From assembly GCF_054482595.1 (NCBI RefSeq), contig NZ_CM137008.1: a stretch of 64,000 nt of DNA; one strand, given 5' to 3'. This document shows positions 1,770 to 18,218 of the stretch, piece after piece (within the stretch, counting starts at the first letter, position 1; the number at the start of each line of letters is the position of its first letter). The translations under genes were made by a program, and so were the position numbers. The notes beneath the pieces were generated by a model. That model was not told the origin of the DNA and searched no databases. It saw only the letters and a list, made by a program, of their open reading frames with translations.

Positions 1770-1906
1770 TGCCTTTATCGCCGTCGGAGCACGTCCGGCG
1801 GCGCTATTCACGCTGATCTCCTGTGACTCGACGCGGCAGATAATGTAGTATCTCCGGCAATATTGCCCCTTTGAAGGCTGGCGAATAAGTTGAGGAATCA
1901 GAATTA

Positions 1907-4165
1907 ATGAGCGATATGGCAGAGCGCCTTGCGCTACATGAATTTACGGAAAACGCCTACTTAAACTACTCCATGTACGTGATCATGGACCGTGCGTTGC
2001 CGTTTATTGGTGATGGTCTGAAACCTGTTCAGCGCCGCATTGTGTATGCGATGTCTGAACTGGGCCTGAATGCCAGCGCCAAATTTAAAAAATCGGCCCG
2101 TACCGTCGGTGACGTACTGGGTAAATACCATCCGCACGGCGATATCGCCTGTTATGAAGCGATGGTCCTGATGGCGCAGCCGTTCTCTTACCGTTATCCG
2201 CTGGTTGATGGTCAGGGGAACTGGGGCGCGCCGGACGATCCGAAATCGTTCGCGGCAATGCGTTACACCGAATCCCGGTTGTCGAAATATTCCGAGCTGC
2301 TATTGAGCGAGCTGGGGCAGGGGACGGCTGACTGGGTGCCAAACTTCGACGGCACTTTGCAGGAGCCGAAAATGCTACCTGCCCGTCTGCCAAACATTTT
2401 GCTTAACGGCACCACCGGTATTGCCGTCGGCATGGCGACCGATATTCCACCGCATAACCTGCGTGAAGTGGCTCAGGCGGCAATCGCATTAATCGACCAG
2501 CCGAAAACCACGCTCGATCAGCTGCTGGATATCGTGCAGGGGCCGGATTATCCGACTGAAGCGGAAATTATCACTTCGCGCGCCGAGATCCGTAAAATCT
2601 ACGAGAACGGACGTGGTTCAGTGCGTATGCGCGCGGTGTGGAAGAAAGAAGATGGCGCGGTGGTTATCAGCGCATTGCCGCATCAGGTTTCAGGTGCGCG
2701 CGTACTGGAGCAAATTGCTGCGCAAATGCGCAACAAAAAGCTGCCGATGGTTGACGATCTGCGCGATGAATCTGACCACGAGAACCCGACCCGTCTGGTG
2801 ATTGTGCCGCGTTCCAACCGCGTGGATATGGATCAGGTGATGAACCACCTCTTCGCTACCACCGATCTGGAAAAGAGCTATCGCATTAACCTCAATATGA
2901 TCGGTCTGGATGGTCGTCCGGCGGTGAAAAACCTGCTGGAAATTCTCTCCGAATGGCTGGTGTTCCGCCGCGATACCGTGCGCCGCCGACTGAACTATCG
3001 TCTGGAGAAAGTCCTCAAGCGCCTGCATATCCTCGAAGGTTTGCTGGTGGCGTTTCTCAATATCGACGAAGTGATTGAGATCATTCGTAATGAAGATGAA
3101 CCGAAACCGGCGCTGATGTCGCGGTTTGGCCTTACGGAAACCCAGGCGGAAGCGATCCTCGAACTGAAACTGCGTCATCTTGCCAAACTGGAAGAGATGA
3201 AGATTCGCGGTGAGCAGAGTGAGCTGGAAAAAGAGCGCGACCAGTTGCAGGGCATTTTGGCTTCCGAGCGTAAAATGAATAACCTGCTGAAGAAAGAACT
3301 GCAGGCAGACGCGCAAGCCTACGGTGACGATCGTCGTTCGCCGTTGCAGGAACGCGAAGAAGCGAAAGCGATGAGCGAGCACGACATGCTGCCGTCTGAA
3401 CCTGTCACCATTGTGCTGTCGCAGATGGGCTGGGTACGCAGCGCTAAAGGCCATGATATCGACGCGCCGGGCCTGAATTATAAAGCGGGTGATAGCTTCA
3501 AAGCGGCGGTGAAAGGTAAGAGCAACCAACCGGTAGTGTTTGTTGATTCCACCGGTCGTAGCTATGCCATTGACCCGATTACGCTGCCGTCGGCGCGTGG
3601 TCAGGGCGAACCGCTCACCGGCAAATTAACGTTGCCGCCTGGGGCGACCGTTGACCATATGCTGATGGAAAGCGACGATCAGAAACTGCTGATGGCTTCC
3701 GATGCGGGTTACGGTTTCGTCTGCACCTTTAACGATCTGGTGGCGCGTAACCGTGCAGGTAAGGCTTTGATCACCTTACCGGAAAATGCCCATGTTATGC
3801 CGCCGGTGGTGATTGAAGATGCTTCCGATATGCTGCTGGCAATCACTCAGGCAGGCCGTATGTTGATGTTCCCGGTAAGTGATCTGCCGCAGCTGTCGAA
3901 GGGCAAAGGCAACAAGATTATCAACATTCCATCGGCAGAAGCCGCGCGTGGCGAGGATGGTCTGGCGCAACTGTACGTTCTGCCGCCGCAAAGCACGCTG
4001 ACCATTCATGTTGGGAAACGCAAAATTAAACTGCGTCCGGAAGAGCTACAGAAAGTCACTGGCGAACGTGGACGCCGCGGTACGTTGATGCGCGGTTTGC
4101 AGCGTATCGATCGTGTTGAGATCGACTCTCCTCGCCGTGCCAGCAGCGGTGATAGCGAAGAGTAA
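1907..4165 (+). CDS. parC: DNA topoisomerase IV subunit A
   Basis: 752 aa ORF; N-terminus [32 protein letters not shown] and GyrA/ParC breakage-reunion domain with active-site region AAMRYTE. Confidence 0.97.
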
Positions 4166-11257: not shown

Positions 11258-11361
11258 ACGTTCCTCCTTTATATGAACTCACCGGAGCAGGCTCCGGTGA
11301 GGTGTTGTGAACTTAAGTCTGGACGAAATGCCCGAAAACGAAAGTTTGAGGCGTAAAAAGC

Positions 11362-15895: not shown

Positions 15896-16630
15896 GTGGG
15901 TAATAATTTAATGCAGACGGACCTTTCCGTCTGGGGTATGTATCAGCACGCCGATATTGTCGTTAAGTGCGTGATGATTGGGCTTATTTTGGCCTCCGTA
16001 GTCACCTGGGCAATCTTCTTCAGTAAGAGCGTAGAGTTCTTTAATCAGAAGCGTCGCCTTAAGCGCGAGCAGCAACTGCTGGCTGAAGCGCGTTCCTTAA
16101 ACCAGGCCAACGATATCGCCGCTGATTTTGGTAGCAAAAGCTTAAGCCTGCATTTGCTCAATGAAGCGCAGAATGAGCTGGAACTGTCAGAAGGCAGCGA
16201 CGATAACGAAGGTATTAAAGAACGTACCAGCTTCCGTCTGGAGCGTCGGGTCGCCGCAGTGGGTCGTCAAATGGGCCGCGGTAACGGCTATCTGGCAACC
16301 ATCGGCGCGATTTCTCCGTTCGTTGGTCTGTTTGGTACGGTCTGGGGCATCATGAACAGCTTTATTGGTATCGCGCAAACGCAGACCACTAACCTGGCAG
16401 TCGTTGCGCCGGGTATCGCAGAAGCTCTGTTAGCAACGGCAATCGGCCTCGTGGCAGCGATTCCTGCGGTCGTTATCTATAACGTATTTGCACGCCAGAT
16501 TGGCGGCTTTAAAGCGATGCTGGGTGATGTTGCAGCGCAGGTATTGTTGCTGCAAAGCCGTGACCTGGATCTGGAAGCCAGCGCCGCTGCGCATCCGGTT
16601 CGTGTCGCACAAAAATTACGCGCAGGATAA
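15896..16630 (+). CDS. exbB: TonB-system energizer ExbB
   Basis: 244 aa; MotA/TolQ/ExbB family TM protein. Confidence 0.95.
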   Translation: MGNNLMQTDLSVWGMYQHADIVVKCVMIGLILASVVTWAIFFSKSVEFFNQKRRLKREQQLLAEARSLNQANDIAADFGSKSLSLHLLNEAQNELELSEGSDDNEGIKERTSFRLERRVAAVGRQMGRGNGYLATIGAISPFVGLFGTVWGIMNSFIGIAQTQTTNLAVVAPGIAEALLATAIGLVAAIPAVVIYNVFARQIGGFKAMLGDVAAQVLLLQSRDLDLEASAAAHPVRVAQKLRAG

Positions 16631-16636
16631 TATCCG

Positions 16637-17062
16637 ATGGCAATGCATCTTAACGAAAACCTCGACGATAACGGCGAAATGCATGATATCAACGTGACGC
16701 CGTTTATCGACGTGATGTTGGTTCTGCTGATTATCTTTATGGTGGCGGCACCGTTAGCGACGGTAGATGTGAAGGTGAACTTGCCTGCTTCTACCAGCAC
16801 GCCGCAGCCGCGCCCGGAAAAACCGGTTTATCTGTCGGTGAAGGCAGACAACTCGATGTTTATCGGTAACGATCCGGTCACCGATGAAACAATGATTACG
16901 GCGTTGAATGCGTTAACCGAAGGCAAGAAAGACACCACCATCTTCTTCCGAGCGGATAAAACCGTCGATTACGAGACGTTGATGAAGGTAATGGATACGC
17001 TGCATCAGGCGGGTTACCTGAAGATAGGTCTGGTCGGCGAAGAAACCGCCAAAGCGAAGTAA
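16637..17062 (+). CDS. exbD: TonB-system energizer ExbD
   Basis: 141 aa; single N-terminal TM plus periplasmic domain; immediately follows exbB. Confidence 0.95.
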   Translation: MAMHLNENLDDNGEMHDINVTPFIDVMLVLLIIFMVAAPLATVDVKVNLPASTSTPQPRPEKPVYLSVKADNSMFIGNDPVTDETMITALNALTEGKKDTTIFFRADKTVDYETLMKVMDTLHQAGYLKIGLVGEETAKAK

Positions 17063-17065
17063 AGT

Positions 17066-17290
17066 AGAATTGCCTGATGCGCTACGCTCATCAGGCCTAC
17101 AATATCTATTGCAACATGTTGAATCTTCGTGCGTTTGTAGGCCGGATAAGGCGTTCACGCCGCATCCGGCATTAGGTGCTCAATGCCTGATGCGCTACGC
17201 TTATCAGGCCTATAAAATCTATTGCAACATGTTGAATCTTCATGCGTTTGTAGGCGGATAAGGCGTTTTCGCCACATCAGGTAAGAGTGA
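17066..17290. repeat. REP/BIME palindromic array (two copies of a unit of about 108 bp, each with two REP palindromes)
   Basis: gcctgatgcgctacgctcatcaggcctac at about 17070 repeated at about 17178; gccggataaggcgtt...gccgcatccggca REP palindromes. Confidence 0.85.
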
Positions 17291-17300
17291 ATTCACAATG

Positions 17301-17335
17301 ATGCCCGGTTGCTTTTCACAACCGGGCATTTTTTT
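17301..17335 (+). terminator. Intrinsic terminator of exbBD
   Basis: Stem atgcccggttg / caaccgggcat followed by a run of seven T. Confidence 0.75.
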
Positions 17336-18218
17336 AACCTAAATGCTCGCCGCCGCACACACCGTGCACTTCTGCGGTGACGTAGCTCGACTCCTGACTT
17401 GCCAGATAAACATATACAGGGGCCAGTTCCGCCGGTTGCCCCGCACGCTTCATCGGCGTTTTCTGACCAAACTGCGGGATCTTATCCTGCGTTTGTCCGC
17501 CGGAAATTTGCAGTGCCGTCCAGATAGGGCCTGGCGCGACAATATTCACCCGAATACCTTTCTCCGCGACCTGTTTTGCCAGGCCACGGCTGTAGTTCAG
17601 AATCGCCGCCTTCGTAGCCGCATAGTCCAGTAAATGCGGACTTGGCTGGTATGCCTGGATTGACGAAGTGGTGATGATACTTGCACCTTTCGGTAGCAGG
17701 GGGATCGCTTCCTGGGTTAGCCAGAACAGCGCGAAAACGTTAATGGCAAAGGTCTTTTGAAACTGTTCGCTGGTGAGGTCTGCAATATCCGGAATGGCAA
17801 CCTGTTTCCCGGCGACCAGCGCCATAATATCCAGCCCGCCTAACGCCTTGTGCGCTTCGTGAACCAGCGAACGGGCGAATTTCTCATCGCTTAAATCGCC
17901 TGGCAGCAGAACGGCTTTGCGTCCGCATTCTTCAATGATCTTTTTCACATCCTGAGCGTCTTCTTCTTCCACGGGAAGATAACTGATCGCCACGTCAGCC
18001 CCTTCACGCGCGTAAGCGATGGCGGCAGCGCGACCTATTCCGGAATCGCCCCCTGTCACCAGTGCTTTACGATCTTTCAGGCGACCGCTACCAACATAGG
18101 TTTTCTCGCCGCAATCCGGTACCGGTGTCATCTTCGCCTGGATGCCTGGCGTCGGTTGTTTCTGTTTGGGATATTCACCAGTGTAATACTGCGTGGTCGG
18201 GTCTTTTAAATGAGACAT
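17334..18218 (-). CDS. yghA: NADP-dependent short-chain dehydrogenase/reductase
   Basis: 294 aa; glycine-rich SDR cofactor-binding motif [10 protein letters not shown]. Confidence 0.9.

Follow-up and report, generated by a model that had tools for sequence, protein, structure and literature searches.

A strain-variable REP/BIME array and a predicted intrinsic terminator between the convergent genes exbD and yghA of Escherichia coli

Three kinds of BIME have been described with which the element treated here can be compared (Ton-Hoang et al., PMC3333891). BIME-1 (RIP/RIB) is formed by one z1 and one y REP in inverse orientation around a conserved long linker called L, often with an IHF site, and is found in single copies. 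BIME-2 is formed by z2 and y REPs with short linkers such as S and is arranged in tandem, and atypical BIMEs are multi-copy chimeras of the y, z1, z2, L, S, s, l and r motifs, the copy number of which varies between strains. Tandem BIME copies at one locus have been attributed to local duplication (PMC3333891). At the RNA level, REP325/naRNA4 (Rfam RF02564) has a y-l-z2 arrangement in six units and gives a discrete RNA of 77 nt, and REP mRNA stabilisers (e.g., that of malE-malF) carry their hairpins in 3' UTRs and are degraded by the degradosome and poly(A) polymerase. Moreover, REPs within 15 nt of a stop codon lower the translation of the upstream gene, according to the summary given in PMC12306157 of the work of Liang et al. 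(2015).

The array under study lies in a 64-kb window, which is the whole stretch of DNA that was analysed. In this window, exbD (16637-17062, + strand) is the upstream flank of the array and converges with yghA (17334-18218, - strand), leaving an E. coli intergenic region at 17063-17333. A query of 601 nt across this gap was 100% identical to annotated E. coli chromosomes in which exactly exbD and yghA are the flanking genes. The exbB, exbD and yghA transcripts have been listed as carrying "REP222, 5 REPs", with the EcoCyc names REP222a-e (Murashko et al. 2023, PMC10100675), and as this gap is the only place where exbBD and yghA converge, the present array is REP222. The array is therefore an ordinary and already known element. 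In full, the gap is very probably the catalogued REP222, a non-coding and strain-variable REP/BIME array with the order z1-L-y-l-z1-L-y*, located between the exbD stop codon and the predicted intrinsic terminator of exbBD, whose T-tract overlaps the yghA stop codon. Four REP-family palindromes could be placed here, together with the terminator hairpin, versus the five REPs counted in PMC10100675. The name REP222 was taken from that publication; the MG1655 RefSeq table has no repeat feature at the exbD-yghA gap, and neither gene is mentioned in the RepRanger and TERMITe supplements. A first-pass annotation had assigned a BIME array and a terminator to the gap in which exbD and yghA converge, and this reading was borne out by the flanking genes, the REP matches, the paralogues and the REP222 listing.

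From 5' to 3', the array consists of a z1 REP, a 35-nt L linker, a y REP, a 12-nt l-type linker, a second z1 REP, a second L linker and a decayed y REP. The exbD stop codon, TAA (17060-17062, + strand), is followed by a 5' flank of 8 nt (AGTAGAAT, 17063-17070), after which the first REP starts. This is z1-a, an iREP (that is, in inverted orientation) with the sequence TGCCTGATGCGCTACGCTCATCAGGCCTACA at 17071-17101 on the + strand, identified by its consensus score, its hairpin and a motif match. L linker a (35 nt, 17102-17136) carries an IHF-like core, ATTCAACATGTTG, at 17112-17124 on the - strand, and leads to REP y-a (GTAGGCCGGATAAGGCGTTCACGCCGCATCCGGCA, 17137-17171, + strand), which has the y consensus and corresponds to the first hairpin of Rfam naRNA4. 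The 12-nt linker TTAGGTGCTCAA (17172-17183) joins unit 1 to unit 2; it aligns with the linker of the naRNA4 model, AAcGGUGCCGAC, and a similar one, TTCGGTGCTTAA, is present in the allele of the divergent "E. coli" representative L014. Unit 2 begins with z1-b, also an iREP (17184-17214, + strand), followed by L linker b (35 nt, 17215-17249), with the same IHF-like core at 17225-17237 on the - strand, and by y-b*, a y copy at 17250-17283 (+ strand) that has decayed through a 1-nt deletion and several substitutions. A spacer of 16 nt (17284-17299) completes the region before the terminator hairpin. Three of the REPs, z1-a, y-a and y-b*, retain the conserved GTAG tetranucleotide of the palindrome foot, and in z1-b it reads ATAG in this strain, K-12 having GTAG at this place.

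The repetition is direct. A stretch of 72 nt at 17071-17142 recurs at 17184-17255 with 94% identity and a spacing of 113, and its continuation of 27 nt at 17143-17169 recurs at 17255-17281 with 85% identity and a spacing of 112, so the period of the array is 112-113 bp. The two whole units, compared with gaps, share 85% identity. Tandem Repeats Finder made no call across 16900-17500, because a two-copy array with a decayed end scores below its limit. Hence, the two tandem units proposed by the first-pass annotation are present, with a longer period than the unit of about 108 bp that it gave, and its pair of REPs per unit is true by descent, given that the fourth REP (17250-17283) is decayed and only three intact hairpins are left.

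Regarding the REP family, the foot motif GTAGGCCKGATAAG, searched with up to 2 mismatches, was found 11 times in the 64-kb window versus 0.37 expected, and 0 of 100 shuffles reached 11. Three of these matches are in the exbD-yghA array, and the rest belong to two other BIMEs of the window (28180-28262 and 60520-60928). In a comparison with y, z1 and z2 consensus sequences, z1-a matched the z1 consensus at 29 of 30 positions, z1-b at 29/30 and y-a the y consensus at 35/35, y-b* reaching only 29/35; the z REPs gave only 29 and 28 matches with the z2 consensus over an alignment of 37 columns. Independently of these consensus sequences, the Rfam naRNA4 covariance model (RF02564) scored 68.1 bits at 17140-17210 on the + strand, its gathering score being 59.5. 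In its alignment the y hairpin is nearly the same as in the model, the linker is related and the apex of the z hairpin is 7 nt shorter, a difference that separates z1 from z2. The match to REP consensus families, by which the first-pass annotation had proposed that the array be checked, was thus obtained for z1-a, y-a and z1-b, and the naRNA4 score agrees with it.

Folded as RNA, z1-a (-15.3 kcal/mol, z = -5.5), y-a (-20.9 kcal/mol) and z1-b (-13.2 kcal/mol) form canonical hairpins, all three with z of -3.85 or lower and with no shuffle folding as well. The decayed y-b* has no canonical REP hairpin (-9.6 kcal/mol, z = -1.7). The fold of the whole region is also stable, with z scores of -6.4 and -6.0 for the + and the - strand, respectively. 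The global minimum-free-energy folds join distant REPs in one long super-hairpin; this is regarded as an alternative fold enabled by the complementarity between z and y, and not as a sign of one large structure. The REPs of the array are high-copy, dispersed and extragenic, with a median of at least 34-40 matching places per genome. They belong to the dispersed REP family of E. coli and make up two units of the BIME-1 type here.

As to the class of BIME, each unit is like BIME-1 in that its z1 iREP and its y REP are separated by the conserved long linker, which here has about 35 nt. However, the array has two head-to-tail units with a period of 113 bp, joined by a BIME-2-style l linker, and its last y REP is decayed, whereas BIME-1 is a single-copy element. 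It differs from BIME-2 in that its z REPs are of the short-apex z1 type and the S linker is absent. On the other hand, atypical BIMEs offer no defining difference, as the array mixes motifs of the y, z1, L and l kinds and has several copies, the number of which changes from strain to strain. In formal terms it thus belongs to the atypical BIMEs, because its two units, joined by an l-type linker, fall outside the single-copy definition of BIME-1.

Paralogues were searched with unit 1 (101 nt, linker included) in 5,426 complete E. coli genomes. In about 1,700 records without the exbD copy, the best match was a full-length paralogue elsewhere with 80-90% identity, and full-length paralogues of the unit were located at gldA-yijF, gyrB-yidB, rpn-yjiR and rnr-rlmB (85-89% identity). 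The two L linkers of the array resemble one another more than they resemble those of the paralogues located, and they share private variants (e.g., CAACATGTTGAATCTTC) that are missing from the paralogues, which indicates that the second unit is a local duplicate. The core of the L linker, TGCAAnnTnTTGAAT, is conserved at the same four loci; on the opposite strand it reads ATTCAAnAnnTTGCA, which agrees at 12 of 13 positions with the IHF core WATCAANNNNTTR. The IHF-like core ATTCAACATGTTG matches WATCAANNNNTTR at 12/13 in both L linkers, and the core has been kept among the paralogues. IHF-core matches were not enriched in the window (65 found versus 53 expected), so the scan alone is uninformative. 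From the conserved core, each L linker could be a putative IHF site, with the two putative sites 113 bp apart.

The Rfam match raises the possibility that the y-l-z1 pair at 17140-17210 gives a nucleoid-associated RNA similar to naRNA4, which would bridge cruciform DNA together with HU. The junction scores above the gathering threshold and has the same two-hairpin layout, DNA is condensed in vitro by HU with any RNA that has two REP-type hairpins, the naRNA4 antisense included (PMC4550694), and a stable REP-containing RNA of about 300 nt is produced from this locus (PMC10100675). However, the Rfam model practically describes any BIME of the y-linker-z kind, and another BIME in the window scores 78.7 bits with it. 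The second hairpin here is a short-apex z1 and not z2, there is one such junction versus the six units of REP325, and no promoter-like site was detected inside the exbD-yghA intergenic region. Since 29% of the strains also lack the array, as detailed below, a role of this kind seems improbable, and the catalogued REP222 array remains the preferred description of the locus.

The repeats also account for the spurious small open reading frames in the exbD-yghA gap. One of 63 aa with a TTG start (17070-17261, + strand) is entirely inside the repeat array, and another of 81 aa with a GTG start (16913-17158, - strand) is antisense to the 3' end of exbD and runs into unit 1. The first-pass annotation had already considered both to be artefactual, with exact coordinates. 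That the region encodes one or more small proteins, from these two frames or from those at 17077-17175 and 17155-17277, is extremely improbable. The frames do exist, and one annotation of the CDS type was found: in strain FDN-11, whose array is interrupted by IS621, PGAP calls a partial, frameshifted "hypothetical protein" pseudogene, which starts in unit 1 and continues into the left end of IS621. Nevertheless, Pfam gave no match for these frames, including the three inside the array, the frames are built of REP repeats that recur at unrelated loci, and they are removed or truncated in the alleles with no unit or one unit. Furthermore, the gap contains no CDS in the MG1655 annotation, in which b3003 is directly followed by b3005, and the same was seen in the other RefSeq genomes with an intact array that were inspected. 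The frames at 17070-17261 and 16913-17158 are artefacts, given that they are repeat-built, have no Pfam match and no CDS in MG1655, and that 1,575 of the 5,426 genomes have lost or never had the repeat DNA in which they lie.

Downstream of the array there is an intrinsic-terminator-like hairpin for exbBD on the + strand, with a stem at 17300-17311 and 17319-17330 (12 pairs, 7 of them G-C) and a loop of 7 nt. It ends in seven consecutive T (17329-17335), which reach into the stop codon of yghA (17334-17336, - strand). The hairpin has -20.5 kcal/mol on the + strand and is the sole terminator-like site in 16600-17800. On the - strand it has -22 kcal/mol and is followed by CAUUGUG, that is, by no U-tract. 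It is thus predicted to be a canonical terminator for exbBD only and not for yghA. The hairpin with T7 proposed for this place by the first-pass annotation was recovered with a 12-bp stem and seven T; what has to be restricted is its use, as it would serve one of the two convergent units.

The hairpin is single-copy (median of one place per genome). In a comparison of 9 alleles or species, the stem was identical in the two-unit, one-unit, empty and IS621-interrupted alleles, in L014 and L016 (two divergent "E. coli" species representatives) and in Escherichia sp. MOD1-EC7003. In E. albertii the stem has one A-to-G change, with a U-G pair still possible, and the T-run has six residues, not seven. 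The loop varies among the compared alleles and species (CTTTTCA, CTTTTCG, TTTTTCA, CTTTCATA and CTTCACA). The retention of the stem while the loop varies fits selection on the stem, and since the stem is retained in all alleles, the terminator is independent of the repeat array.

RNA 3'-end mapping, the other check named for this region by the first-pass annotation, was covered with public data, in which window position x corresponds to MG1655 coordinate 3167880 - x. The Term-seq data of Adams et al. 2021 (PMC7815308) have no curated 3' end between MG1655 3148973 and 3151150 in three growth conditions, and the predicted exbBD end at 3150545-51 (- strand) is therefore without a listed end in these three conditions, for which low expression or filtering is a possible cause. 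Termination at the hairpin is consequently given here as predicted, and the "textbook" terminator is unconfirmed by the one 3'-end data set consulted. The same Term-seq data list 3' ends inside exbB and exbD (PMC7815308).

BIME-associated attenuation of transcription was reportedly described by Espeli et al. in 2001. At this locus, Rho-dependent regions were taken from DirectRNA-seq with and without bicyclomycin (BCM), evaluated in 800-nt windows and therefore of coarse resolution (PMC7815308, supplementary file 2). In the exbBD sense there is a region at MG1655 3150660 (-), that is, at window position 17220 inside unit 2, where the coverage falls from 161 to 42 without BCM and from 141 to 92 with BCM (p = 2.9e-5). 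In the yghA sense there is a region at MG1655 3151021 (+), window position 16859, antisense within exbD, with a fall from 41 to 9 without BCM and no fall with BCM (70 to 70; p = 9.5e-5). These data agree with yghA transcription crossing the hairpin and the array, with Rho limiting read-through in both directions, and with the hairpin being neither the only nor the main end of exbBD transcripts. Entry of yghA transcripts into the array is also indicated by published Northern blots. The hairpin may also be leaky, given that 92 of 141 of the exbBD-sense coverage persists downstream when Rho is inhibited; alternatively, the persisting coverage may come from unrelated antisense transcripts induced by BCM. 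The 3'-end check has thus given no Term-seq end at the hairpin and Rho regions on both strands.

Transcript decay at the locus has been studied for yghA. The half-life is 2.8 min for its full-length mRNA, of about 1,000 nt, and 6.2 min for a decay intermediate of about 300 nt that contains REPs; RNase E-ts mutants and degradosome-scaffold mutants stabilise both RNAs (PMC10100675). On the yghA strand, the array shows the classical behaviour of a REP stabiliser, which is experimental at this very locus (PMC10100675). It is like the known REP mRNA stabilisers in placing REP hairpins in the 3' UTR and in the long-lived yghA intermediate, and it differs from them in that it serves two convergent units and has, in the exbBD sense, a separate predicted intrinsic terminator downstream.

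Regarding the way in which the array could act, exbBD mRNA would contain all four REPs in its 3' UTR, upstream of the predicted terminator of hairpin and U7. For yghA, the lack of a U-tract after the hairpin means that RNA polymerase would enter the array and then the antisense of exbD, where Rho would stop it. In the RNA, the REP hairpins could block 3'-to-5' exonucleases, and on the DNA each L linker may offer a putative IHF site. The first hairpin starts 8 nt past the exbD stop codon and would fall inside the 15-nt range for lowered translation as summarised in PMC12306157. However, the array may leave ExbD translation unchanged, because the empty allele also has a stable hairpin, only 4 nt past the stop.

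The presence of the array was surveyed in the same 5,426 complete E. coli genomes. The two-unit allele, with at least 80% of the 601-nt query in one place, is found in 3,591 of them, so that about 65% have an intact array. The empty site, GCGAAATAAAAATGATGCCCGG, in which the exbD stop codon is followed by 4 nt and then by the hairpin, is found in 1,575 (29%), counted by megablast as genomes covering at least 80% of a junction-spanning query. A single unit of the L002 type, at 90% identity or more, is present in 26 genomes (less than 1%). IS621, which targets REPs (PMC1525189), is inserted in z1-b at ATCAGGCCT^AC, after window position 17211, in 176 genomes (3.2%), as counted with a 233-nt query that includes locus-specific DNA. 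A shorter query of 101 nt over the IS621 junction found 1,150 genomes at 80% coverage and was dropped, as it was not locus-specific. About 84 genomes remain outside the characterised allele classes.

Beyond this survey, a scan of species representatives showed that E. albertii has a single, decayed unit and "E. coli" E69 a single unit, that "E. coli" SCPM-O-B-8794 has four REPs in another order, z2 included, and that the site is empty in Escherichia sp. MOD1-EC7003. S. enterica subsp. diarizonae has a single Salmonella-type REP followed by a T-run. The inner flanks are common to all filled Escherichia alleles (TAAAG..GAAT on the 5' side and AAGAGT on the 3' side), and this suggests that these alleles have a single origin. 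The array is dispensable and unstable, and alleles with no unit, one unit, two units and an IS621 interruption coexist in E. coli. As 29% of the genomes do without it, any function of the array is non-essential and may be nil.

This variation bears on whether the array is nothing more than selfish or neutral repeat DNA that was spread by the REP-associated transposase (TnpAREP/RAYT) or through local slippage, its RNA effects being by-products with no selected role. Escherichia sp. MOD1-EC7003 and 1,575 of the 5,426 genomes lack the array, its copy number goes from 0 to 2 and another arrangement has a z2 REP, and IS621 interrupts it in 176 genomes that retain the flanking genes. Moreover, the terminal y REP is decayed both here and in E. 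albertii, and the GTAG of z1-b is mutated in this strain. Nevertheless, the three inner REPs are near the consensus and still fold, and measurable effects on yghA RNA decay have been published (PMC10100675). We give this neutral origin a little under an even chance. It is largely compatible with the best explanation, the REP222 array described above, from which it differs only on whether the effects on RNA are selected.

With the element catalogued and its effect on yghA RNA decay published, the array in itself has little discovery value. A more far-reaching proposal, which we regard as quite improbable, is that the array works as a two-way buffer between exbBD and yghA, in which tandem IHF bends, REP hairpins and Rho attenuation would act against convergent read-through, blocking the entry of exbBD-sense transcription into antisense yghA and of yghA-sense transcription into antisense exbD, and in which the polymorphism of no, one or two units would tune ExbD or YghA output. 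If this were true, TonB energisation would differ between E. coli lineages. In any case, the empty allele (29%), the one-unit, two-unit and IS621-interrupted alleles form a natural series for the effects of REPs on two convergent mRNAs.

The second z1 REP of the exbD array (z1-b, window 17184-17214) is interrupted by IS621, a member of the IS110 family, in 176 of the 5,426 complete E. coli genomes, exactly at ATCAGGCCT^AC and with CT as the core. The insertion point is equivalent to window 17211/17212 and corresponds to positions 3312/3313 and 4589/4590 of L004, one of the comparison loci from other genomes; it is also found in L019, L020 and L021. In the window's strain, the IS621 target reads ...CCTAT, versus ...CCTAC.

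One of these loci, L020 (strain 120899, positions 1801-3160), also appears to be rearranged. To the right of the IS621 in its exbD array, inverted DNA from downstream of hybG takes the place of yghA and of the remaining part of the array. Two IS621 copies seem to have mediated or bounded this change, apparently by inverting the roughly 11 kb from yghA to hybG that separates them.

Concerning the annotation of the neighboring genes, the exbB product (WP_000527844.1; window 15896-16630, and L001-L004) is named by PGAP as "tol-pal system-associated acyl-CoA thioesterase", and the curated MG1655 record gives "Ton complex subunit ExbB". The PGAP name appears to be a propagated misnaming. In the exbD-yghA gap of MG1655 (NC_000913.3), the locus tags skip one number, from b3003 (yghA) to b3005 (exbD), as would be expected if the REP array had formerly been annotated with an ORF that was subsequently removed. 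Regarding transcript ends, strong Term-seq 3' ends have been reported within exbD and exbB, at window 16730, 16202 and 15949 (MG1655 3151150, 3151678 and 3151931, respectively, - strand), and the same list contains no 3' end for the predicted exbBD terminator (Adams et al. 2021, PMC7815308).

The window carries two further REP arrays. A second BIME, which reads z2-linker-y on the + strand, lies at 28180-28262 and matches the Rfam naRNA4 model on the - strand with 78.7 bits. The third array (60520-60928) consists of about 3.5 tandem units with a 133-bp period, where y REPs alternate with a different short palindrome (ATGCCCGATGCGCAAGCTTATCGGGCCTAC). Moreover, two sRNAs are matched above the Rfam gathering score, both on the - strand: C0719 at 53485-53706 (299 bits) and ES173 at 11296-11359 (99 bits).

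Mixed BIME-1/BIME-2 arrays also occur at other loci, since the flgD-flgE gap of GPEC102 (L011, 601-811) holds a composite array of z1, a short L-like linker, y, l, z2, a linker and y. Downstream of exbD, E. coli SCPM-O-B-8794 (L014) presents a z1/y/z2/y* arrangement at the same insertion site, where E. albertii (L013) has a single, strongly decayed unit. REP turnover at this site has a long history.
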